This document shows positions 38,792 through 62,976 of a DNA stretch of 64,000 nt, one piece after another. The position numbers were made by a program, and so were the translations under genes. The stretch is from a phage. Below the pieces are notes generated by a model. That model saw only the letters and a program-made list of their open reading frames with translations, searched no databases and was not told the DNA's origin. The stretch lies in sequence record PZ452609.1; one strand, written 5' to 3'. Position 1 is the stretch's first letter. Each line of letters opens with the position of its first letter.

Positions 38792-39832
38792 ATGGAGAAG
38801 TACACATTAACAAAGCTTCCCGATTCAGTTACACATGTCTTTATTGACTCTGACAGTATTGCCTATAAAGGTGCTTGTGTAGTTGAGAAAGCAAAGTATA
38901 AATACGTTAATAAACTCACAGCAGAAGAGTCTGAACCATTTGATAATGCGAAAGATGCTGCAAGATGGTTAGCAGACCAGAGAATCCTTGTGGAAGAGCT
39001 TGGCCTGACATTTGAGGAAGATGAATGGGAAAGACAAACTTGGAAAGAAGCTAAGAGTGAAAAAGAAGCTATCATGGCTACTCAACAGGTGCTTCAGGAA
39101 TGGCTTAAGATTGTTGGTAAAGAAAGAACTTGGGTAGGTTATTTAACAGAGAAGGGTGTGCATAAACATAAAGACATTAAAGGTCTTGAGCACCAATATC
39201 AAGGTAATCGTAAAGATGCTGTCACACCAACACACTTAGTCGCTTGTCGTGAATACCTTTTATCCAGACCAGAGTTCAAGCTCTTAAAGGGGGGCTTCGA
39301 AGCCGATTCAATCGTAATTGCTAAAGCTGAAAAGATGGGTAAGAAGGCTGCTCTTATGAGTATTGACAAAGACCTTCGACAAGCTGAAGGAACTTATTGT
39401 ATTGATATGACTTATGAAAAATCACCACTAATCTTTATTGCTGATAATAATGTTGGTGATATCTGGGATTGTCCTATCAAATCAAAACCAAAAGCTGCAA
39501 AAACAGTTGGTGTAGGTTTTAAATTCTTGTGCTATCAGGCTGTTGCTGGAGATAATGCAGACAACTACTTCGGACTTAAAGGTGCTGGTAAAGTGGCTGT
39601 GATGAATGCTTTAGATGGTAAAGAGACCTACAAAGAGTGTCTTGATGCTATCTATGAACTCTATGCTAAAAAAGACTCTTACACCTATGTATCATGGGAT
39701 GGACAGACAGTTACAAAGACACCGTTAGAGCTAATGGAACAGCATTTCTGGATAGCTTATCAAGAAAGAAATCCAAAAGATAATTTCTCTTTTAAGAAAT
39801 ATAATTGGGAGCCGTGTATGAATGAAGATTAA
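38792..39832 (+). CDS. 5'-3' exonuclease / flap endonuclease (FEN/RNase H-like, putative)
   Basis: N-terminal VFIDSDSIAYKGA resembles the hh-D-G/S-x-x-h-A-Y-R motif of 5' nuclease domains. Confidence 0.45.
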   Translation: MEKYTLTKLPDSVTHVFIDSDSIAYKGACVVEKAKYKYVNKLTAEESEPFDNAKDAARWLADQRILVEELGLTFEEDEWERQTWKEAKSEKEAIMATQQVLQEWLKIVGKERTWVGYLTEKGVHKHKDIKGLEHQYQGNRKDAVTPTHLVACREYLLSRPEFKLLKGGFEADSIVIAKAEKMGKKAALMSIDKDLRQAEGTYCIDMTYEKSPLIFIADNNVGDIWDCPIKSKPKAAKTVGVGFKFLCYQAVAGDNADNYFGLKGAGKVAVMNALDGKETYKECLDAIYELYAKKDSYTYVSWDGQTVTKTPLELMEQHFWIAYQERNPKDNFSFKKYNWEPCMNED

Positions 39833-40319
39833 AGGATTTGGCAATTGCCCCACCTATGGTCATTGGGTGTCTTTATGTGGGGAAGTTGACCCCACTAAAC
39901 ATTTTGGTTTTGTCTATTTAGTACACTGTAAGAAAACCGGACAATATTATATCGGAAAGAAACAGCTTAATAGTGTGACTAAAAGAAAAGTTGCTGGCAA
40001 GACTCGGAAGAAGGTAGTCACTAAGGAGAGTGATTGGATGACTTATGAAACTTCTTCTGAGTATATTAAAAAAGATATTGAGAGCTTTGGAAAAGAATTT
40101 TTTGACTTTTACATTATTCAGACCTACTACACAAAAGGTGGCCTAGTCTATGGTGAAGCAAATCTTCAACATAAATTCGATGTAATGACAAAAAGGATTG
40201 ACTCTAAGCTCAGACTCTTCTACAATGCCAATATTGCAGCAATTAAGTTTATTACTAAAGAAACTTATGAAGATGCTGAAAAAAGAATCCATAAGGTAAT
40301 GAAAGCAAACTGTGCTTGA
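39822..40319 (+). CDS. GIY-YIG domain endonuclease-like protein
   Basis: FGFVYLVHCKKTGQYYIGKK matches GIY-(x10)-YIG spacing. Confidence 0.4.
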   Translation: MKIKGFGNCPTYGHWVSLCGEVDPTKHFGFVYLVHCKKTGQYYIGKKQLNSVTKRKVAGKTRKKVVTKESDWMTYETSSEYIKKDIESFGKEFFDFYIIQTYYTKGGLVYGEANLQHKFDVMTKRIDSKLRLFYNANIAAIKFITKETYEDAEKRIHKVMKANCA

Positions 40320-50499: not shown

Positions 50500-50550
50500 A
50501 CAGATACTATAAGGGGACTGTAAAGGTTCCCTTTTTATTTTGGAGGTAAA

Positions 50551-51066
50551 ATGTATCTGTCAAACCTGAAACGTTCGGTTGCAATGTCAGTTCTAAGACT
50601 CAGCTTTGATGAGCGTCAAGAGTTTATAGACTCCCACAAATATGACCCTTCAAATTCTAATCACATGGTTCTTTGGAATCGTGGTAACTTACGTGAAAGA
50701 GCACTTGTCCGTTATTACCCACACTACACAATAGATAACCTGTATGAATGGTGTGTTGTGAAGAACACCATTGCAACACTGAACAATCTTTGCAGGTATA
50801 CGGGTAAGCAAATATTTACATTAGGTCATCACAAACCTGTTACAAAAGGTGGTGAACATCACTGTGCAAACTGGTTTATCCAAACTAAAGCTGATAACCA
50901 GAAGCAAGGAGATAGCCTCCTAAGTATCCCTAAGATGACCTATGAAGAGCAAGAGAAATATATCAAAAATAATATGCCAGATGTGCTTGACAACAACTAT
51001 ACAGATTTGGCAATATCTCTCCTGTTGAAGTTCGAGACAGTTTATAGGGCAACTTATAATGACTAA
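50551..51066 (+). CDS. HNH endonuclease-like protein
   Basis: GHHKPVTKGGEHHCANWFIQTKADNQKQ resembles HNH/His-Me finger core. Confidence 0.4.
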   Translation: MYLSNLKRSVAMSVLRLSFDERQEFIDSHKYDPSNSNHMVLWNRGNLRERALVRYYPHYTIDNLYEWCVVKNTIATLNNLCRYTGKQIFTLGHHKPVTKGGEHHCANWFIQTKADNQKQGDSLLSIPKMTYEEQEKYIKNNMPDVLDNNYTDLAISLLLKFETVYRATYND

Positions 51067-51337
51067 AGAAAAGTGGGAGATTTTACCATTAGTCAGTGAA
51101 GGAGGTAATGGTTGTGAAATGTACATGATACGTGGTCATGTTCCAGAGCCAATTGCACTTGAGATGGTAAACAACTTTACAGATGGTTCTTACAAAGACT
51201 TAGGCGAACCAACTGTCAAGCAACAATGGGTTAAACCTGTACCAGACAGCACAGGTAACTGTAGTGTACTTTATCACGTTGTAGACCCTGCAAAATGCAA
51301 ATCTGCAATGGCAGTAACAAACGTAACTTTTGATTGA
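51059..51337 (+). CDS. hypothetical protein
   Basis: 92 aa. Confidence 0.35.
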   Translation: MTKEKWEILPLVSEGGNGCEMYMIRGHVPEPIALEMVNNFTDGSYKDLGEPTVKQQWVKPVPDSTGNCSVLYHVVDPAKCKSAMAVTNVTFD

Positions 51338-52230
51338 GAGAGAAAACTATGAAAACATCTATCCGTGTTACAGTTCATTCACCAACTAAAGGGACTCATG
51401 AAGAAGAGTTTAACATCGTCCAATTCCCTTCTGGTGAGATTGGTGGACACTTTTCGCCAGAGTTTGTTGATTTTACTGCTTATGCAGCATCATCCATCAA
51501 CAATGTGATTATGATTGTAAAAGGTTATGACAAGGACACATTGTTTGCTGTGGCACTTGCTAAAGAAGCAATTGATGATTTAATTCCTCATGATTATGCT
51601 TTAAAGACTGTCATCTTTTACTACTTACCAAATGCACGATATGACCGTCACATGTTTAAAGGTGACGCAGCAGCTTTAAAGGTTTTTGCTAAACAGATTA
51701 ATGCAATGGGATTTGGCGCAGTCTGTGCAGTTGACCCTCACAGCTATGTACCAGATAACCTGTTTAACTGCTTCCAGAGTATTCCTCAAAAGGAGATTGC
51801 AGTCCACTATGCAAATGACCCACTGGTTGATTACTTAGTAGCCCCAGATGCAGGTGCTGCTAAGAAGGTTGCAGAGACCGCTAAAGAGGTGGATAAACCA
51901 TATATCACAATGTCTAAGGTGCGTAACCTTAAGACTGGTGAAATTACTGGTATGCGAATCCTTGATGATGTTGATTTGACAGATAAAACCGTCATGATTC
52001 TGGATGATATCTGTGATGGTGGTCGAACCTTCATAGAAGCAGCTAAGCATCTCCGTGAAGCAGGTACAAAACGTGTGGAACTCTATGTAACACATGGTAT
52101 CTTCTCTAAAGATGTTGAAAACCTTCTTGACAATGGTATTGACCATATCTACACTACAAACTCTTTAGGGGAAGCTAAAGACCGTGGCTTAACACATTAT
52201 GGTCAAGTTACTGTAGCAAACCTTGATTGA
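51334..52230 (+). CDS. ribose-phosphate pyrophosphokinase-like enzyme (PRPP synthetase family; possible ADP-ribose pyrophosphokinase)
   Basis: PRTase-type binding motif VMILDDICDGGRTF; 298 aa; immediately upstream of Nampt-like gene. Confidence 0.7.
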   Translation: MREKTMKTSIRVTVHSPTKGTHEEEFNIVQFPSGEIGGHFSPEFVDFTAYAASSINNVIMIVKGYDKDTLFAVALAKEAIDDLIPHDYALKTVIFYYLPNARYDRHMFKGDAAALKVFAKQINAMGFGAVCAVDPHSYVPDNLFNCFQSIPQKEIAVHYANDPLVDYLVAPDAGAAKKVAETAKEVDKPYITMSKVRNLKTGEITGMRILDDVDLTDKTVMILDDICDGGRTFIEAAKHLREAGTKRVELYVTHGIFSKDVENLLDNGIDHIYTTNSLGEAKDRGLTHYGQVTVANLD

Positions 52231-52239
52231 AACTTTATA

Positions 52240-52260
52240 GGGGCTTAAAAGCCCCATTTT
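52240..52260 (+). terminator. stem-loop ggggc-ttaaaa-gcccc + ATTTT between the two NAD-module genes
   Basis: hairpin and T-run; member of recurring GGGGCTT..AAGCCCC family. Confidence 0.4.
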
Positions 52261-52275
52261 GAGAGAGATTAAAAG

Positions 52276-54057
52276 ATGACTAAATCACTTTATGCAGTAC
52301 CAGCAGGTTTAAATGCAGATGCTTACAAATCTGGTCATGTTTACCAGTATCCTAGTGCAACAGAATACTTGATGTTCAACCTGACACCACGTAGTGATAA
52401 ATGGTTTAACAGCCCTTTAGCAATTGACGGTGTAGTGGCTTTTGGTATTCAACGTTTTGTTAAAGATTACTTGATAGACCACTGGAATGCCACTTTCTTT
52501 GAACGTGATAAAAAAGAAGCCATTGATGAAATCTTAGAAGTCATGAATGGTGTTCTGGGTAAAGATGCTATCGGTCGAGAGCATTGGGAAGCACTTCACG
52601 ACTTAGGTTATCTACCAGTTGAAGTATACGCTGTAGAAGAAGGCACAGTTGTTCCAATGCGTGTCCCGATGATTGTCTTTCAGAACACTGTTTCAGGTTT
52701 TCATTGGGTAGCAGGTTATCTGGAAGATGCTTTCTCTGCTGAAATTTGGAAGGCTTGCACCATTGCAACTATTGCATTGCATTACAAACGCATCTGTAAG
52801 AAGTGGGCTGACCTTACTTGTGACAATGACTTACATTTACCTTATCAGTGCCATGATTTTGCTATGCGTGGTATGTCCGGCTTTACTGATGACGCATTTA
52901 ACGCTGTAGGTCACTTAACCAGCTTTAAAGGGACTGATAGCTTCCCTGCTGTATACACGGCTAAACGAATCTATGGACAGTCCTACCCAATCTCTGATAT
53001 TGGTAGCTCTGTACCAGCCACTGAGCACTCTGTAATGTGTGCAAACATTGCTTGGGAAGGTGGTAATGAGTTGATTGAAGAAGAAAGACGCTTTAAAGGT
53101 GAGTTACAAACCTTCCGTCGTTTCTTAACAGAAACTTACCCAACAGGTATTGCAAGTATTGTTTCAGATACTTATAACTTCTGGAGAACTGTGTCAGAAA
53201 TCTTACCAGCACTTCGTAAAGAAATTATGGAACGTGATGGCAAACTGGTAATTCGCCCTGACTCTGGAGACCCTGTACATATTGTCACAGGTTATAAAGC
53301 AATCCACTTAGAATGTGCTAAGAAGGCTTATTACGAGCACCTAAGCAAGCTGGAAGTCAGTGACACAATGTTGAATGCTGTTCTTAACATGAAGCTTGAA
53401 AACATCAACTATGGTATTGCTGGATGGCTACTGTCAGAAGGCTACGAAATGGTTGTTGACAGAGAAGACTTTGAAGTTGCTGATACAGTGATGTTGAAGA
53501 ACGCTTATATGGTTGGTTCTGCAAACGTTGTAACACGCCCTGTAGCAGAGATTGATGGAGCTATTAAGACCTTGTATAACATCTTTGGAGGAACTATCAA
53601 CTCTAAAGGTTTTAAGGTACTGGATGAGCACATTGGACTTATCTATGGCGACTCTATCACGTTGGAACGTGCAAACGAAATCCTGAAGCGTCTGTATGAA
53701 ATGGGGTTTGCAAGCTCTAACGTGGTGTTTGGTGTAGGCTCTTACACTTACCAGTACATGACTCGTGACACCTTTGCATTTGCTGTCAAAGCAACTCTTG
53801 CAAGCATTGGTGGCAAAGAGATTATGCTTGCAAAAGACCCTAAAACAGATAGTGGTGTTAAGAAATCTGCCTTTGGTGGTGTAGCACCTATGTGGGATGG
53901 TGAGAATTTGAAAGCTGTAGATGGCTATGGATTCCAGAGCTTTGCAGATGCACTTGAACATCCAGCTTGTGCTTTACGTTTAGTCTTTAGCGACTCTGAG
54001 CAGTACGGTTACACAACTCTTGGTGATATTCGAAATAATATTGACAAGCAGCTTTAA
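52276..54057 (+). CDS. nadV: nicotinamide phosphoribosyltransferase-like enzyme (Nampt/NadV family)
   Basis: 593 aa; family assignment by overall similarity of pattern (e.g. VSDTYNFW) and by pairing with Prs-like gene. Confidence 0.6.
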   Translation: MTKSLYAVPAGLNADAYKSGHVYQYPSATEYLMFNLTPRSDKWFNSPLAIDGVVAFGIQRFVKDYLIDHWNATFFERDKKEAIDEILEVMNGVLGKDAIGREHWEALHDLGYLPVEVYAVEEGTVVPMRVPMIVFQNTVSGFHWVAGYLEDAFSAEIWKACTIATIALHYKRICKKWADLTCDNDLHLPYQCHDFAMRGMSGFTDDAFNAVGHLTSFKGTDSFPAVYTAKRIYGQSYPISDIGSSVPATEHSVMCANIAWEGGNELIEEERRFKGELQTFRRFLTETYPTGIASIVSDTYNFWRTVSEILPALRKEIMERDGKLVIRPDSGDPVHIVTGYKAIHLECAKKAYYEHLSKLEVSDTMLNAVLNMKLENINYGIAGWLLSEGYEMVVDREDFEVADTVMLKNAYMVGSANVVTRPVAEIDGAIKTLYNIFGGTINSKGFKVLDEHIGLIYGDSITLERANEILKRLYEMGFASSNVVFGVGSYTYQYMTRDTFAFAVKATLASIGGKEIMLAKDPKTDSGVKKSAFGGVAPMWDGENLKAVDGYGFQSFADALEHPACALRLVFSDSEQYGYTTLGDIRNNIDKQL

Positions 54058-54069
54058 AAGTATATGATA

Positions 54070-54094
54070 AGAGGCTCCTACGGGAGCCTTTTTA
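54070..54094 (+). terminator. intrinsic terminator (aggctcc-UACG-ggagcct + TTTT)
   Basis: perfect stem and T-run. Confidence 0.65.
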
Positions 54095-54110: not shown

Positions 54111-54455
54111 ATGGACAACCTTTCCATATGGTTTAACAATAAACCTGTACAACCGAAATACTTACAAGTTGCCTATACAGACATCCTTAAAGTTCTCGGT
54201 AAAGAAAAGTTTGAAAAGTTTTGTGAAGGTATCTACAATCACCACTGCCAATTTGCTACAAAAGAAGGTATGTTTGTCATAGAACAGTTCTTTGGCAGAG
54301 ACCCAGATGACTACGAAGAGATTAGCTTTGTAATGAAATACATGATAGAGTATATTGAAAATCGTGGATTCGAAGTTAATCCTGAATTTTATGAACATGA
54401 GGGTGTACCTTTAGCAAAAGGTTTCGATGGCATACTCATTAACTGGACTTGGTGA
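54111..54455 (+). CDS. hypothetical protein
   Basis: 114 aa. Confidence 0.35.
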   Translation: MDNLSIWFNNKPVQPKYLQVAYTDILKVLGKEKFEKFCEGIYNHHCQFATKEGMFVIEQFFGRDPDDYEEISFVMKYMIEYIENRGFEVNPEFYEHEGVPLAKGFDGILINWTW

Positions 54456-54796
54456 AAACTATGAAAATCAAAGAGATGAACATCAACATTATCTTAGAAG
54501 AACGTTGGGAGAACATTAAGAAACCTGAAGATGGTAAAAAGTTCCTTAACAAAATTTTAGTAGCAGCTAAAGAAGAACTGACTGGCAAGATTGCAGCAGC
54601 AATCACAATAAAAGTTTGTGTAAAAGGTCTTCCAGACCATCACCAATTTGCACTTGACGAGTTTAAAAAAAGCTTCTACAATCCAAACAAACAGATGCTT
54701 GAAAGTAACTTTGCAGTATCTACAAGTATCGTCCATGACAGAAGCTTTATCCTTTACAAAAACATGAGGGGTGAGTCATGCAAGCATATTGGGTAG
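54449..54796 (+). CDS. hypothetical protein
   Basis: 115 aa. Confidence 0.35.
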   Translation: MVKTMKIKEMNINIILEERWENIKKPEDGKKFLNKILVAAKEELTGKIAAAITIKVCVKGLPDHHQFALDEFKKSFYNPNKQMLESNFAVSTSIVHDRSFILYKNMRGESCKHIG

Positions 54797-54982: not shown

Positions 54983-57349
54983 ATGCGCATGGTAAATGAC
55001 CACGCAGAAGTGATTAAGAGTTCAACTTCTTTAGAGACGTCTCAAGCACAGATTACAATGACACCTGAGATGTTCAGCCTTTTGAGTTCTGGTGTATATA
55101 CCTTTAAAGAAAGGGCAGTGATTCGTGAACTGTCATGTAACGCAGTAGATGCTCAGAAAGAAGCTGGAAAAGAGAACATTCCGTTCCATGTGCATTTACC
55201 TACTCGTTTTGAGCCTTACTTTGAAGTTCGTGATTTTGGAACTGGATTGACTCATGATAAAGTTATGAGTTTGTACCTAAACTACGGGGCTTCTACGAAG
55301 AATGACTCTAATGACTACATTGGTGCAATGGGTATCGGCTCAAAATCCCCATTTGCAATTGCTCAGTCATTCACAGTATCTAGCTATGTTGATGGTGTTG
55401 TTAATAAGTACTCTGTTTATCTTGAGAATGGTATCCCTCAAGTAACTAAGCTGACCACTAACCCAACAAAAGAACCTAATGGTTTAGCTGTACGTGTGGC
55501 AGTTGCTGACCACCGTATCTCAAAGTTCTTTGAAGAAGCTGGAAATGTGTACTCATACTTCACTGTAAAACCAGAAAGTAATATTGAGTACGACGATGTA
55601 TTAGCAGATATGAACGTCATTGCCCGTGAAGAAGGTGTTTATGATGCCATGATTCATAAGCAAAGCTGGCGTTCTAGTGGTAACAGGACAGAGTTTAATG
55701 TGGTGATGGGTAATATTGCCTATCCAGTGAACATGGAAGCATTACTTGGTGATGATTTCTTCAAAGTCTTGCCAGAGTTTTTCCGTAGGAGCGTAGACCT
55801 TGTAAACATCTACATGCCTATTGGTTCAGTTGCTATAGCAGCTTCTCGTGAAGCATTGCAGATGAATGATACGACAAAAAATGTTATCATCGAGGCTACC
55901 AAAAAGATAACTGAAGCAATTACAAAGGATGTTATCAAGAAAGTTAATAGCCAACCTACACTCATGGATGCTGCACAGGCTTATGCAGAGCTACGTTTGA
56001 ACTCACGAGAGATGTTTAATGCTGTGTGTCCAAAGCTAGAGTGGGGAGGCATTAAGCTTGATTCTCTGGAAGAAGAATTGTTAAACATTCGTCGTGGAAT
56101 TATCTACGCAGAAGACGGCTCAGTCATTTATGAACGTGACGGTAAAGGCAATATTAAGGTTGATAGGAACGGGAACAATATCCCTAAAGTAGATTATCTT
56201 TATGACCCAGTTGCTTATGTCAAGTTCAACTCTTTAGAGAGTAAGATTCGTGCAACAGCACTTTCCTACACTCAAGAGGCAAGCATGTTCAATATCTTTG
56301 GTGCAATGCGTAAAAGCCAAATTGAACAGTTTTTGTTCGTGATTAATGACCGTCGCAATAAAAACGGTACTGAGAAGACTGTAGGACGCAATCAAATTTT
56401 GCGTGGTGCATGTCGAGACTACGCCAGTGAGTCAAATCTGTTTCACAGATACAATGGTATTGTCTTTGTATTCTCGACTGAAAAAGAGTTAGATGATTTA
56501 ATCAATCTACACAAACTTGATAAAAGCTTGTTAAAGATTGTGAAGATGTCTGATAAGGAACACCACTATCAGCGTAAAGAAGCTGTAAGGGGTGTTGTAA
56601 AACTCTGGAAAGCTGTTCCAGCAGAAACTAAAGCTTCATACAAAGAGGTGTCAGAAGACTTAGACACAATTGAAGAGCCTCAGCTTTATATTAAGGCAGT
56701 AGGTGACACAGTTGATGGTAGATGTTTTTGCTCATCTCCAGAGGATGTAGCTAAGTCAGTTGCTAATGTTACAGGCAAGACAGTCTATGTTTTCCGAAAA
56801 GCAAATTGGAAAAAGATACCAGAAGACTGGATTGAAGTAGATGAGAAGCTCTTGAACGACAGCTTAACTGATGTTCATTGGATTAACCATAACAGGTATA
56901 TGACACGCATCTACATGGATGGTGTCCTCGACCTTACAAGCAGTTGGATTATTGCCAGAAACTTTACGTTCAATAACAGGAAGATTTCTCGCGGGTATTG
57001 TTATTCAAGGGATACTATTAAGACAATCTTCTTAGAAGGGAATGAAGATGCTGTTGAGGCAATGTTCGGTAAGATTCAGTATGTGGCTGCACCGTTTGCA
57101 TACACTTACACTATCAGTGTTCTTCAGGATTTGAAGTCATGCCTTGATAATGACACAAAACTGTACAAAAAGATTAAAAAAGCAGGTGACCGCATGGTTA
57201 TCAAGCTGACAAACTATCTTTCAAAAAGAAAACAAGAAAACTTCTTGCTTTCACACTTAGATTGGAATAAAGTATCACCTATCGAAGTGAGTAAGTTTTT
57301 AGGCTTTAATGTGAAATGTGTTCCAGAAGGTACAACAATTTACGATTAA
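54983..57349 (+). CDS. rIIA: rIIA-like protein with N-terminal GHKL-type ATPase domain
   Basis: GHKL N-box IRELSCNAVDA, G1 DFGTGLT, G2 GAMGIGSKSPF; 788 aa, followed by rIIB-size gene. Confidence 0.45.
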   Translation: MRMVNDHAEVIKSSTSLETSQAQITMTPEMFSLLSSGVYTFKERAVIRELSCNAVDAQKEAGKENIPFHVHLPTRFEPYFEVRDFGTGLTHDKVMSLYLNYGASTKNDSNDYIGAMGIGSKSPFAIAQSFTVSSYVDGVVNKYSVYLENGIPQVTKLTTNPTKEPNGLAVRVAVADHRISKFFEEAGNVYSYFTVKPESNIEYDDVLADMNVIAREEGVYDAMIHKQSWRSSGNRTEFNVVMGNIAYPVNMEALLGDDFFKVLPEFFRRSVDLVNIYMPIGSVAIAASREALQMNDTTKNVIIEATKKITEAITKDVIKKVNSQPTLMDAAQAYAELRLNSREMFNAVCPKLEWGGIKLDSLEEELLNIRRGIIYAEDGSVIYERDGKGNIKVDRNGNNIPKVDYLYDPVAYVKFNSLESKIRATALSYTQEASMFNIFGAMRKSQIEQFLFVINDRRNKNGTEKTVGRNQILRGACRDYASESNLFHRYNGIVFVFSTEKELDDLINLHKLDKSLLKIVKMSDKEHHYQRKEAVRGVVKLWKAVPAETKASYKEVSEDLDTIEEPQLYIKAVGDTVDGRCFCSSPEDVAKSVANVTGKTVYVFRKANWKKIPEDWIEVDEKLLNDSLTDVHWINHNRYMTRIYMDGVLDLTSSWIIARNFTFNNRKISRGYCYSRDTIKTIFLEGNEDAVEAMFGKIQYVAAPFAYTYTISVLQDLKSCLDNDTKLYKKIKKAGDRMVIKLTNYLSKRKQENFLLSHLDWNKVSPIEVSKFLGFNVKCVPEGTTIYD

Positions 57350-57354
57350 AGTGT

Positions 57355-57384
57355 TTGACAAGGGGCTTTGAAGCCCCTTAGAAT
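57355..57384 (+). promoter_or_regulatory. promoter TTGACA-N18-TAGAAT with hairpin in spacer
   Basis: -35 57355-60, spacer is aggggct-ttga-agcccct palindrome, -10 tagaat 57379-84. Confidence 0.45.
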
Positions 57385-57428
57385 AGCCTCACAAATTGAT
57401 TGATTAACTAACAAGAGAGAGTAATAAG

Positions 57429-58538
57429 ATGACTACTAAAACTAAAGCACAGATTGACGCAGAAATTTACAAACTGGTTAAAGAAGGTAAGCTGACTAAA
57501 ACAGCTATTGCACAGAAGTTCAATACTTCAACCCGTTCAGTTGGTCGTGCTGTAGAGCGTCATGAAGCAACCTTAAAAGGCAAGAAGAAGGCAACTTCTA
57601 CACCAGCTACGAAGACTTTGAAACAATTTGCTAAGACTTTTAAAAAGAAAGCTGGCAAACCAGTTGAAAAGGTCGTTAAAGACACTGTACAGAAAGCTCC
57701 AGTAAATAAACTGCACGAAGCTATGCAGAAAGATGACAAGATTGAGTACATGATTACTGGTGATTCTGTAATTATGACTTATGGTTCAGAATCTGAAATT
57801 GTTGAGTCTACTCATCCGAACTATCAAGAGATTGTAGTTCATGTTGTGAAAGGTCAGTTCAAGAAAGCATTTGAACTGATGAACATTCGTAAGTCTATCG
57901 AAAACTTCACTCAGGGTGCTATCACAATCAAAGGCGACAAGCTATTCTACGGTGCTGTTGAGATGCGTTCTACTCTGGTTGACCGTATTCTTCACATGAT
58001 GAAAACTGGCGATAAAGGTTTTGAACGACTTGTAATGTTCTTCGAAAAACTGATGGAAAACCCATCTAAAGATTCTGTAGAACAACTTTGGGGATTTGTA
58101 TCTCACCTTGATGTTGAAATTGATGAAGAAGGCTACATCATTGGTTGGAAGAAAGTCTCTACTCGTGAAGGCAAGCTGGTTGACTCTCACACCTACAAAG
58201 TGCCTAATGATTTGGGTAACATTGTAGAAATGCCACGTTGGATGGTTGATAATAACCGTAACGTAACTTGCTCTCAAGGTCTTCATGTTGGTGCTTGGGA
58301 TTATGTTCGTTGCTTCTCAGGTGATACAATCCTGAAGGTTCGCGTACATCCACGAGATGTTGTATCTGTTCCAACTGATTACAATGATATGAAGATGCGT
58401 TCCTCTCGTTATGAAGTTGCAGCAATCGTTGATAATCAACGTAAAGTGCTGGAAGCATGGGACGGTAAGACTGAAGCTTTGCATGTCATCGTTGGCACTG
58501 CTGGTGAACTCATCTCTCAACGTAAACGTGAAATCTAA
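57429..58538 (+). CDS. rIIB-like protein (putative), N-terminal HTH-like region and basic linker
   Basis: 369 aa directly downstream of rIIA-like gene; assignment by synteny only. Confidence 0.35.
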   Translation: MTTKTKAQIDAEIYKLVKEGKLTKTAIAQKFNTSTRSVGRAVERHEATLKGKKKATSTPATKTLKQFAKTFKKKAGKPVEKVVKDTVQKAPVNKLHEAMQKDDKIEYMITGDSVIMTYGSESEIVESTHPNYQEIVVHVVKGQFKKAFELMNIRKSIENFTQGAITIKGDKLFYGAVEMRSTLVDRILHMMKTGDKGFERLVMFFEKLMENPSKDSVEQLWGFVSHLDVEIDEEGYIIGWKKVSTREGKLVDSHTYKVPNDLGNIVEMPRWMVDNNRNVTCSQGLHVGAWDYVRCFSGDTILKVRVHPRDVVSVPTDYNDMKMRSSRYEVAAIVDNQRKVLEAWDGKTEALHVIVGTAGELISQRKREI

Positions 58539-62190: not shown

Positions 62191-62976
62191 ATGGGTATTG
62201 TAAAAATAATTAATGGTGATATCTTTGCCGCATTTGATAAAGGTAAGTTTGACATCATCGGTCACGGTTGCAACTGTATGAATTTAATGGGTGCAGGTAT
62301 CGCTGACAAGATTTCTAAACTTTACCCAAAAGCATATGAGACCGATACAGAAGTTTATCTGTATGCAGGTGGTATAGGACACAAACCCTGTGAAAATTTA
62401 CTGGGTAATTTCTCTGTAGCACGTTTAAAACAAGGTCGTATAGCTAACCTTTACACTCAGCTTAAGACTGGTAAAGATGCCCGATACAGTGCTTTAGAGT
62501 CATCTTTGAAACAGCTTAACAGATACTGTGAAGTTAATCAGTTGAAGAAGGTTGGTTTACCTATGATTGGTGCAGGTATCGGTGGACTTGACCCTCAAGC
62601 CGTCACAGTTATCATTAATCAGGTGATGAAGAGTGTAGATGTTTATCTGTATGTCTACGAAGGAGAGATGTACCACAAGTTACGCTCAGGTTGGAATAAC
62701 TACTGTGAACCAGAATACTTTGCAGGTGTAGTAACGTTCAAAGATGATACAGTTACCCTCTTCAGACGAAGAAAAGGTAAGATACATCAAAGTAACCCTC
62801 CGGTTGAGAAGATGTCTCTAAGTAACGCTCTAGTTACCCACCTGTCGAAGAGCAATCACAGGATAGCCGTAACATTTGGCAGTGATGCAGATACATATAT
62901 TTATGCAAGAACTGATGAGGATATCGAGACGGTCTTCTCTTCACCAGAAGTTACCTTCTTAGACGCAAAGAACTAA
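62191..62976 (+). CDS. macro domain-like protein (ADP-ribose binding/processing, putative)
   Basis: N-terminal INGDIFAAF..FDIIGHGCNCMNLMGAGIADKI and later GLPMIGAGIGG resemble macro-domain Gly-rich motifs. Confidence 0.4.
   Translation: MGIVKIINGDIFAAFDKGKFDIIGHGCNCMNLMGAGIADKISKLYPKAYETDTEVYLYAGGIGHKPCENLLGNFSVARLKQGRIANLYTQLKTGKDARYSALESSLKQLNRYCEVNQLKKVGLPMIGAGIGGLDPQAVTVIINQVMKSVDVYLYVYEGEMYHKLRSGWNNYCEPEYFAGVVTFKDDTVTLFRRRKGKIHQSNPPVEKMSLSNALVTHLSKSNHRIAVTFGSDADTYIYARTDEDIETVFSSPEVTFLDAKN

Follow-up and report, generated by a model that had tools for sequence, protein, structure and literature searches.

A Felixounavirus gene pair that very probably constitutes the NAD+ reconstitution pathway NARP1

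Introduction

Why would a phage carry a PRPP-synthetase-like gene directly beside a Nampt-like gene? A first-pass annotation of a 64,000-nucleotide stretch of phage DNA (sequence record PZ452609.1; hereafter the window) proposed that such a pair forms a two-enzyme route from ADP-ribose to NAD+ and serves as an anti-defence module. Our analysis supports this proposal: the route is that of NAD+ reconstitution pathway 1 (NARP1), shown for the orthologues of phage Bas63, to which the two products are 77% and 98% identical. We conclude with great confidence that the locus is the NARP1 operon of a Felixounavirus. The system is already published and structurally characterised and the genes of this phage are already catalogued; the window adds nothing new in this respect.

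NARP1, a 2024 discovery whose two reactions were new to biology at that time, is a two-gene operon that lets phages turn the products of NAD+ cleavage back into NAD+; the study by Osterman et al. reportedly appeared in Nature in 2024. In the proposed mechanism, SIR2-HerA, DSR, type I Thoeris and other host defences split NAD+ into ADP-ribose (ADPR) and nicotinamide. Adps would move the beta,gamma-pyrophosphate of ATP to the 1'' hydroxyl on ADPR's terminal ribose, yielding ADPR-PP, and Namat, by Nampt-type chemistry, would then let nicotinamide displace the pyrophosphate of ADPR-PP, giving NAD+ directly. An NMN intermediate and an NMN adenylyltransferase (NMNAT) would both be unnecessary, and by recycling the defence products the phage would hold NAD+ high enough for replication. 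NARP1 is useful in engineering therapeutic phages, and it matters because NAD+-depleting defences occur in at least 7% of sequenced bacteria (bioRxiv 10.1101/2024.02.11.579819).

Organization of the locus

The locus and its surroundings contain the following features.

50511..50533, + strand: terminator-like hairpin preceding the unit (terminator scan: 9 pairs, T-run)
50551..51066, + strand: context gene, homologue of Bas63 gp77, 171 aa (89% identity to gp77)
51059..51337, + strand: context gene, homologue of Bas63 gp78, 92 aa (98% identity to gp78)
51349..52230, + strand: adps, ADP-ribose diphosphokinase, PRPP-synthetase-like, 293 aa
52240..52255, + strand: intergenic stem-loop GGGGCT-TAAA-AGCCCC followed by A-UUUU, with a 6-bp GC-rich stem, in the 45-nt spacer
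52276..54057, + strand: namat, nicotinamide ADP-ribose transferase, Nampt-like, 593 aa
54069..54092, + strand: intrinsic terminator closing the unit (ten-pair stem and a T-run, terminator scan)

The ORF list and Pfam confirmed the two adjacent same-strand genes of the first-pass annotation: ORF 1 at 51334..52230 (+; 298 aa counted from TTG) and ORF 2 at 52276..54057 (+; 593 aa). Both reading frames are intact and of full length, and the reported 45-bp gap is exact (52231-52275). The earlier length of 298 aa for the first product holds for the ORF and its coordinates, but not for the start of the gene, which is almost certainly ATG 51349 (293 aa) and not TTG 51334. This ATG is located 5-6 nt 3' of GAGAGAG, a Shine-Dalgarno-like run that also lies ahead of the Namat ATG, and the 293-aa product agrees with the deposited protein (MKTSIRV...) and with the 293-aa Bas63 orthologue. 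Antisense ORFs within adps and namat (e.g. 53434..53961, - strand, 175 aa) were set aside as genes, given the strong purifying selection on the + frames and their full-length orthologues.

The 45-nt spacer has a folding energy of -12.6 kcal/mol (z=-2.9), and its hairpin stem is invariant relative to Bas63 and Salmonella phage PC79-13, with changes confined to loop bases. The hairpin noted earlier was thus present; the T-run said to accompany it proved weak, and the terminator scan did not call the hairpin at 52240-52255 because merely four T's follow the stem. It might terminate transcription weakly or leakily, or else stabilise the transcript. An Rfam search of the whole window yielded zero matches at the gathering threshold; the intergenic hairpin therefore lies outside every described RNA family. 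The strong terminator reported after the second gene was recovered at 54069-54092. It folds at -16.6 kcal/mol and is identical in sequence in Bas63 and PC79-13; at the equivalent position after Namat, the terminator of a Hafnia phage differs in sequence.

The hairpin at 50511-50533, which is kept in Bas63 and PC79-13, probably marks where the transcription unit containing NARP1 is bounded on its 5' side. The gene at 50551-51066 lies within the same apparent transcription unit but has no part in NARP1 chemistry; Pfam gave no significant match for its product, and Bas63 gp77 has been reported to counter retron Ec67 (10.1101/2024.10.10.617714). Nothing in Pfam matched the product of 51059-51337.

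Identity, conservation and selection

Escherichia typing phage 1, a Felixounavirus, matches the DNA of the locus at 100% identity. Bas63 (JohannRWettstein; accession MZ501086), whose NARP1 genes are 79-80, belongs to the same genus and shares the nrdG-to-rIIA gene order, the 45-bp spacer length, the hairpin and the terminator. The namat product is 98% identical to Bas63 gp80, and each functional residue checked is the same in both. The adps product differs more: its identity to gp79 is 77% overall and 66% over the N-terminal 170 residues, the lower value arising because adps carries in its 5' half a distinct allele of ancient divergence.

With coverage of at least 80%, the two-gene block of 2.7 kb occurs in 229 phage records, and because it recurs in this way the adps-namat pairing is not due to chance. 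Both genes are under purifying selection, with dN/dS of 0.12-0.13 for adps and 0.04 for namat. The adps 5' half is a mosaic and strongly diverged; even there dN/dS was 0.13.

Could the genes be decayed, non-functional metabolic remnants that the phage carries passively? The strong divergence of the adps 5' half is the sole hint in this direction. Set against it are the intact, full-length frames, the presence of every catalytic residue tested, the low dN/dS in the diverged half as well as in namat, and the conservation of the block across the 229 phage genomes. We regard this explanation as extremely improbable.

Both products already appear in the supplementary tables of the NARP1 study (bioRxiv 10.1101/2024.02.11.579819). 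The exact adps sequence is entered among the Adps homologues of Table S1 and flagged 'Yes', which we read as Namat-associated, and the namat product is entered by accession in Table S2 as 'Adps-associated'. The GenBank/RefSeq names 'ribose-phosphate pyrophosphokinase' and 'nicotinamide/nicotinate phosphoribosyltransferase' should become Adps and Namat.

The first enzyme belongs to the phage Adps clade

The main alternative to NARP1 is a booster of classical salvage, in which a true PRPP synthetase and a true Nampt would supply PRPP and NMN and host NadR, NadD or PncC would complete NAD+. Generic profile names and the PRPP-synthetase/Nampt-style annotation of database records agree with it. ORF 1 matched Pfam Pribosyltran (E=4e-11) and Pribosyl_synth (E=2e-9) and contains the PRTase motif VMILDDICDGGRTF, as previously noted; ORF 2 matched NAPRTase. 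Among NCBIfam models, the general ribP_PPkin subfamily (120.6 bits vs. a cutoff of 113) and NF006629 (469 bits vs. a cutoff of 405) were exceeded. However, ribP_PPkin was the only such cutoff that the adps product cleared; it fell below all Prs equivalog cutoffs (e.g. 103 bits vs. 296), which argues against a true PRPP synthetase. The product also matched PHROG 619 (E=2e-96). Sequence identity and profile scores (77% to Bas63 Adps, the Table S1 listing and the failed Prs equivalogs) place it in the phage Adps clade and not with cellular Prs.

A PDB sequence search with Adps revealed no solved Adps, the top match being Sulfolobus Prs (4twb, E=1e-17), and residues were therefore mapped through an alignment with ICP1 Adps, of a Vibrio phage. 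The functional residues of that enzyme are K185, R87, H121, D161, D212, D213 and D216, together with a conserved PP loop, as described with its solved structure (PMC13586617). The two proteins share only 31% identity; F26, R97, H131, D167, K190, D219-D220-I221-C222-D223, T227 and F228 are conserved in the window protein. K190 corresponds to the catalytic beta-hairpin lysine K185 of ICP1, and the acceptor residues R97, H131, D167, D219 and D220 are kept. The adenine contact F92 of ICP1 Adps aligns to M102, the residue that Bas63 also carries.

Two features set the protein apart from cellular Prs, and the first of them counts against the salvage explanation. The PP loop is remodelled to DDICDGG, of the DDICDG type found in ICP1 Adps, vs. 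DDMIDTGGT in Prs. In the sequence alignment Adps ends ~20 residues short of the E. coli Prs C-terminus, and the C-terminal alpha11-alpha12 module of canonical PRPS thus appears to have been lost; absence of this module is a described Adps feature (PMC13586617).

The second enzyme carries the adenine clamp of Namat

ORF 2 matched Pfam NAPRTase with E=7.5e-35 and also NAMPT_N, and scored 431 bits against the solved SpbetaL1 Namat (9w5w/9w5x). Alignment to 9w5x showed that the Nampt-like catalytic core is intact: D15, Y17, F195, R198, D221, H251, R327 and D329. The core residues of SpbetaL1 Namat are D13, Y15, F189, R192, D215, H245, R306 and D308 (PMC12774641). Two ligand contacts are conservatively changed relative to SpbetaL1 (S190 to A196 and A362 to S460), and Bas63 has the same residues at both.

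The adenine clamp, present in Namat and absent from Nampt, counts against the salvage explanation. Its SCH half is G488-S-Y-T-Y-Q-Y-M-T-R-D498, in keeping with the SpbetaL1 motif GSX.X.X.TRD, whereas a KVP40-type Nampt, aligned alongside, reads GGGLLQQSDRD at this position, with no clamp motif. The selectivity-clamp loop (SCL) is S40-D41-K42-W43, identical to Bas63. Adenine stacking in the SCL is by Arg at position 3 or by the residue following Lys/Tyr, and in Bas63 the stacking role is given to the fourth residue (PMC12774641). The window protein and Bas63, with K42-W43, differ here from SpbetaL1, which has R40.

Two lineage features of the protein were also seen. An insertion of 70-80 aa (residues about 343-427) is lineage-specific, and a second insertion of 15 aa lies near residue 260; the SpbetaL1, FADO and ICP1 proteins have neither. 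Pfam found nothing significant in the larger insertion when it was searched in isolation.

No NMNAT was detected in the phage genome

The first-pass annotation found no NMNAT in the window and called for a search of the remaining genome. The result held when the search was extended to the whole genome NC_041979. Six-frame stop-to-stop ORFs of at least 40 aa from the window and NC_041979 contained no H-x-G-H motif, and when E. coli NadD and NadR were used as phmmer queries against these sequences, the best hit had only E=1.9. A scan of 88 chosen window ORFs for the HxGH motif likewise returned zero; the Pfam scan of these 88 ORFs has 25 of 55 families listed. The NMNAT queries were E. coli enzymes for want of a KVP40-type NatV near the NadV of Vibrio phage D482, and Pfam revealed no NMNAT among the proteins flanking that NadV. 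One RefSeq 'NAD synthetase', FDI04_gp057 (39822-40319), was rejected because Pfam assigned it a SegE-type GIY-YIG domain.

Experiments on orthologues favour NARP1

NARP1 was found in the Bas63 operon and shown there experimentally: Bas63 without genes 79-80 did not grow on SIR2-HerA cells, and ADPR-PP was detected in Bas63-infected cells (bioRxiv 10.1101/2024.02.11.579819). In an independent screen, deletion of either gene alone cost 1e4-1e6 in plating. The two reactions, ADPR + ATP to ADPR-PP and ADPR-PP + nicotinamide to NAD+, were demonstrated in vitro for SpbetaL1, ICP1, DyoEdafos and Paenibacillus enzymes.

These experiments bear directly on the salvage explanation. Bas63, whose genes are near-identical, still beat SIR2-HerA when both pncC and nadR were deleted from the host, and ADPR-PP accumulated; the study concludes that Adps evolved toward ADPR in place of ribose-5-phosphate, and Namat given both donors yielded NAD+ alone (bioRxiv 10.1101/2024.02.11.579819). 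Because the double-deletion host was overcome, the classical route from nicotinamide through NMN to NAD+, which the first-pass annotation had kept as an alternative, is not needed. We consider a salvage booster very unlikely at this locus. Since Namat enzymes keep some PRPP-dependent NMN synthesis in vitro (PMC12774641), a minor classical (PRPP/NMN) contribution may exist alongside NARP1. By analogy with the orthologues, we infer that this exact Adps/Namat allele pair would have the same chemistry and anti-defence role. Points that weigh against it are the 66% identity of the Adps N-terminal 170 residues to the tested Bas63 protein, M102 in place of ICP1 F92, and the two changed ligand contacts of Namat, although Bas63 shares the residues at these last three positions.

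Comparison with other NAD+ pathways

The folds of NARP1 enzymes are those of cellular Prs and Nampt, and both systems use pyrophosphoryl transfer from ATP followed by displacement of pyrophosphate by nicotinamide. In NARP1, however, the acceptor is ADPR and not ribose-5-phosphate, and the donor is ADPR-PP and not PRPP. NARP2 (KVP40 NadV Nampt and NatV NMNAT/Nudix) also uses a Nampt-family enzyme to rebuild NAD+ against NAD+-depleting defences, but it requires an NMNAT and PRPP; the locus here has a Prs-like Adps and an adenine clamp, and no NMNAT was found in the window or NC_041979. NARP3 (a PnuC-like transporter and a NadR-like enzyme, as in Bas30; PMC13464706) shares the biological purpose but consists of unrelated enzymes, and the phmmer search found no NadR-like ORF in the phage genome.

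A distant Macro-domain gene and the NARP1-AP variant

A further feature lies about 8.1 kb, roughly 15 ORFs, downstream of the NARP1 pair.

62191..62976, + strand: gene for a Macro-domain protein, 261 aa, possibly an unlinked accessory, which is uncertain (Pfam Macro E=1e-7)

This protein belongs to the same broad family as the Macro-domain ADPR-1''-phosphate phosphatase Adpp of NARP1-AP, an Adps - Adpp - Namat arrangement known from Vibrio phage Gary, which shares the core pair with the locus (bioRxiv 10.64898/2026.01.28.702374). It is 27% identical (E=2e-13) to the biochemically tested Gary Adpp and 24-36% identical to five NARP1-linked macro proteins, the alignment with Adpp proteins running end to end, and its H25 corresponds to the mutated Adpp residue H24. 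It differs in being extended at the C-terminus by about 105 additional aa, in which Pfam found nothing significant.

The published rule for NARP1-AP places the Adpp gene at most 2 genes from the Adps/Namat pair (bioRxiv 10.64898/2026.01.28.702374). There is no Macro gene within this distance here; Pfam found no Macro domain in the flanking ORFs 50551-51066, 51059-51337, 54111-54455 and 54449-54796. The NARP1-AP table of that study contains no Escherichia- or Salmonella-host phage and none of the Felixounavirus names searched. The Macro family occurs in 2848 phage records, those of T2 and other T-even-type phages included, which counts against a specific link to NARP1; to our knowledge, these phages are without NARP1. 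Besides an Adpp-type function, the protein could have a DarG-like one, removing ADP-ribose from DarT-modified DNA.

We hold it doubtful, though conceivable, that Felixounaviruses run a 'split' NARP1-AP, in which the 62191-62976 protein would turn ADPR-1''-phosphate, which RES-type NAD+ phosphorolysis produces, into ADPR and so feed Adps and Namat. Under this reading, the Macro gene would have been missed by the two-genes-either-side rule because it lies ~8 kb from the operon. If the split arrangement were true, Felixounaviruses would also resist aRES-type defence, and the ~105-aa C-terminal extension would be a new accessory element.

Gene pair and transcription unit

ORF listing, Pfam and PHROGs confirmed two same-strand ORFs with PRPP-synthetase-like and Nampt-like assignments.

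Reading frames of the pair (ORF listing of the window)
51334..52230, +, first ORF (adps), 298 aa from TTG
52276..54057, +, second ORF (namat), 593 aa

Pfam detected Pribosyltran and Pribosyl_synth in the first ORF and NAPRTase and NAMPT_N in the second; the PHROGs matches were 'ribose-phosphate pyrophosphokinase' (E=2e-96) and 'nicotinamide phosphoribosyl transferase' (E=2e-202), respectively. The first-pass annotation had read the first ORF from 51334. The ORF exists, but its start and length are almost certainly ATG 51349 and 293 aa. This ATG lies 5-6 nt 3' of a GAGAGAG run, an identical run precedes the Namat ATG, and the 293-aa length is that of the database-record protein and of the protein of Felixounavirus Bas63. 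TTG 51334, which shares bases with the stop of the preceding gene, is probably not used.

Three hairpins, one of them in the 45-bp adps-namat spacer, are common to the window, Bas63 and the more distant Salmonella phage PC79-13.

Conserved hairpins
50511-50533, upstream terminator, kept in Bas63 and PC79-13
52240-52255, intergenic hairpin, GGGGCT-TAAA-AGCCCC, then A-TTTT
54069-54092, terminator 3' of namat, ten pairs plus T-run

In these phages the intergenic stem is invariant and the loop alone varies. A hairpin with T-run between the genes and a strong terminator after them had been described previously; hairpin and terminator stand, but the intergenic T-run has just four T's and the terminator scan made no call there. 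This hairpin could either set the Adps:Namat ratio as a leaky terminator or act as a stabiliser. Because of the conserved hairpins, including the two flanking terminators, the gp77-like gene, the gp78-like gene, adps and namat likely form one transcription unit. At the position equivalent to 54069-54092, Hafnia phage vB_HpaM_SarahDanielle, a more distant member of Ounavirinae, carries a terminator with another sequence. In this phage, adps is separated from namat by two small ORFs, possibly NARP1 accessory genes not yet characterised.

ORFs between adps and namat in the Hafnia phage locus (L008)
L008:1577-1963, 128 aa, no Pfam match
L008:2047-2424, 125 aa, no Pfam match

Identity of the pair as NARP1

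In NAD+ reconstitution pathway 1 (NARP1), Adps makes ADPR-PP from ADP-ribose (ADPR) and Namat makes NAD+ from ADPR-PP and nicotinamide. Work on NARP1 began with genes 79-80 of Bas63; their deletion resulted in SIR2-HerA sensitivity and deeper NAD+ loss, their effect was independent of host pncC and nadR, and ADPR-PP was a new metabolite in infected cells (bioRxiv 10.1101/2024.02.11.579819). In the same study, purified SpbetaL1 Adps converted ADPR and ATP to ADPR-PP, and SpbetaL1 Namat converted ADPR-PP and nicotinamide to NAD+. An independent knockout screen showed a 1e4-1e6 plating drop on Sir2-HerA cells when either gene was lost. Window Adps and Namat are 77% and 98% identical to the Bas63 proteins in gap-free alignments. 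By this orthology the pair is very probably NARP1, with predicted Adps and Namat activities, which bears out the first-pass reading of a putative two-enzyme anti-defence route from ADPR straight to NAD+.

Generic annotation points instead to classical salvage, in which Prs would make PRPP, Nampt would make NMN and the host would complete NAD+, and Namat does retain some PRPP activity. We consider this route highly improbable: the Bas63 effect persists in a pncC nadR double-deletion host, the metabolite ADPR-PP was found and in vitro substrate preferences are contrary (bioRxiv 10.1101/2024.02.11.579819), and the window proteins bear Adps- and Namat-specific sequence features. The reported lack of an NMNAT in the window holds, and none was found in the rest of the genome as represented by NC_041979 (Escherichia typing phage 1). 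In both sequences, six-frame stop-to-stop ORFs of at least 40 aa contained no H-x-G-H motif, and phmmer with E. coli NadD and NadR gave a best E of 1.9. Because NARP1 needs no NMNAT, nothing is missing.

One further gene with an NAD-related name was rejected as an NAD enzyme; the name is a misannotation, since its Pfam match is to the SegE-type GIY-YIG endonuclease domain.

39822-40319, +, RefSeq 'NAD synthetase' FDI04_gp057, 165 aa, SegE-type GIY-YIG domain (E=9e-28)

The supplementary tables of bioRxiv 10.1101/2024.02.11.579819 contain KP869100_00096, the window's exact 293-aa sequence, as an Adps homologue with flag 'Yes' (which we read as Namat-associated), and KP869100_00095 as an 'Adps-associated' Namat; the gene pair is thus already catalogued. 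The system is already known, having been found in sister phage Bas63; both enzymes of NARP1 have been explained structurally, and the remaining value lies in correction of database annotation and in small leads.

Adps residues and allele history

Window, Bas63, Suspvirus, Hafnia-phage, JSF12 and ICP1 homologues were aligned with E. coli Prs, and residues were mapped from the ICP1 Adps structure paper (PMC13586617).

Window Adps residues and their ICP1 Adps equivalents
F26, F18
R97, R87
H131, H121
D167, D161
K190, K185 (catalytic)
D219-D220-I221-C222-D223, D212-D213-I214-C215-D216
T227, S220
F228, F221

The mapped residues are all present except the ICP1 adenine contact F92, which is replaced by M102 in the window, and by M also in Bas63. 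All aligned phage proteins have DDICDGG, whereas E. coli Prs has DDMIDTGGT and a C-terminal tail that they do not reach. Window Adps scored just above the general NCBIfam ribP_PPkin subfamily cutoff (120.6 vs 113) and fell far short of every NCBIfam Prs equivalog cutoff.

The 5' half of adps (about 51351-51850) has 60-79% DNA identity to Bas63, whereas the flanks have 90-99%. Synonymous sites in this half are saturated (dS 1.9, dN/dS 0.13). It looks like an old functional allele obtained by recombination rather than a product of rapid adaptive change, and the segment appears to encode the N-terminal, hexamer-core domain. Decay of the pair, to which we give practically no credence, is excluded by the intact frames and dN/dS of 0.04-0.13. 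Adps identity is bimodal across phage records (155 at ≥90%, 94 at 60-80%), with two allele classes in Felixounavirus (≥90% and about 75-78%); Namat identity is ≥95% in 208 records.

Namat residues and insertion

The best solved relatives of window Namat were 9w5w/9w5x (431 bits), whose numbering agrees with the SpbetaL1 Namat residues named in PMC12774641. Alignment to them showed an intact catalytic core (D15, Y17, F195, R198, D221, A248, H251, R327, D329, G458, D459). The clamp helix is G488-S-Y-T-Y-Q-Y-M-T-R-D498, in place of which a KVP40-type Nampt in the alignment has GGGLLQQSDRD, lacking the aromatics. The clamp loop is K42-W43, as in Bas63, where the stacking role is assigned to the fourth residue.

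Ounavirinae Namats, including those of Bas63 and the Hafnia phage, carry a 70-80-aa insertion at about residues 343-427 (window 53302-53556); Vibrio phage JSF12 has a shorter version, and ICP1, FADO and crystallised SpbetaL1 Namat lack it. The insertion had no Pfam match, and the word 'insertion' is absent from the Namat structure paper (PMC12774641). Window Namat also carries another insertion, of roughly 15 aa, near residue 260.

Distribution and neighbourhood

Escherichia typing phage 1 (KP869100/NC_041979) and typing phage 15 match the 2.7-kb block at 100% identity, and wV8 and many further Felixounavirus genomes match it at 96-98%; 229 records hold at least 80% of the block. The window's first 20 kb match the same group, and its Pfam content (terminase, capsid, tail, NrdAB/NrdDG, ThyA, DHFR) fits a Felix O1-like myovirus. 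Window position 1 is exactly the start of the terminase large-subunit start codon, and the window is circularly permuted relative to NC_041979. By coordinate sums, ~1.6 kb of NC_041979 between two matched regions lacks a counterpart in the window, which could reflect record ends, a terminal repeat or an indel.

Gene order is that of Bas63: nrdG, two small ORFs, the pair, three small ORFs, rIIA/rIIB.

Neighbouring genes
50551-51066, +, gp77 homologue, 89% identical to Bas63 gp77
54983-58538, +, rIIA/rIIB homologues of the Bas63 genes, just downstream of the pair

Bas63 gp77 is reported to counter retron Ec67 (10.1101/2024.10.10.617714), and Bas63 rIIA/rIIB to counter QatABCD, so that the pair has anti-defence neighbours. 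An H-N-H-like stretch (GHHKPVTKGGEHHCANW) occurs in the gp77 homologue, which gave no significant Pfam match.

Macro-domain protein

A Macro-domain gene lies about 8.1 kb 3' of Namat.

62191-62976, +, Macro-domain protein, 261 aa, annotated 'phosphatase' or 'macro domain protein', equivalent to Bas63 gp95

Over its first 155 residues it shows an end-to-end alignment to NARP1-associated Adpp proteins (ADPR-1''-phosphate phosphatases); identity is 27% with the tested Vibrio phage Gary Adpp (E=2e-13) and reaches 36% with other Adpp proteins. The Adpp His replaced in the H24A mutant is conserved; the C-terminal extension of about 105 aa had no Pfam match. The survey of NARP1 with associated Adpp (NARP1-AP) covered two genes either side of NARP1 only, a range that this gene falls outside, and its table contains no phage of Escherichia or Salmonella hosts and none of the searched Felixounavirus names (bioRxiv 10.64898/2026.01.28.702374). 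An unlinked Adpp is possible but unproven, and a weak DarG-like score hints equally at a de-ADP-ribosylating role. Members of this Macro family were found in 2848 phage records, among them T2 and further T-even-type phages, which are not known to carry NARP1; because the family is common in such phages, a specific link to NARP1 is unproven. Vibrio phage JSF12 has a Macro-domain gene of 157 aa (L006:1968-2441), annotated just 'hypothetical protein', between adps and namat, an arrangement like that of the NARP1-AP of Vibrio phage Gary.
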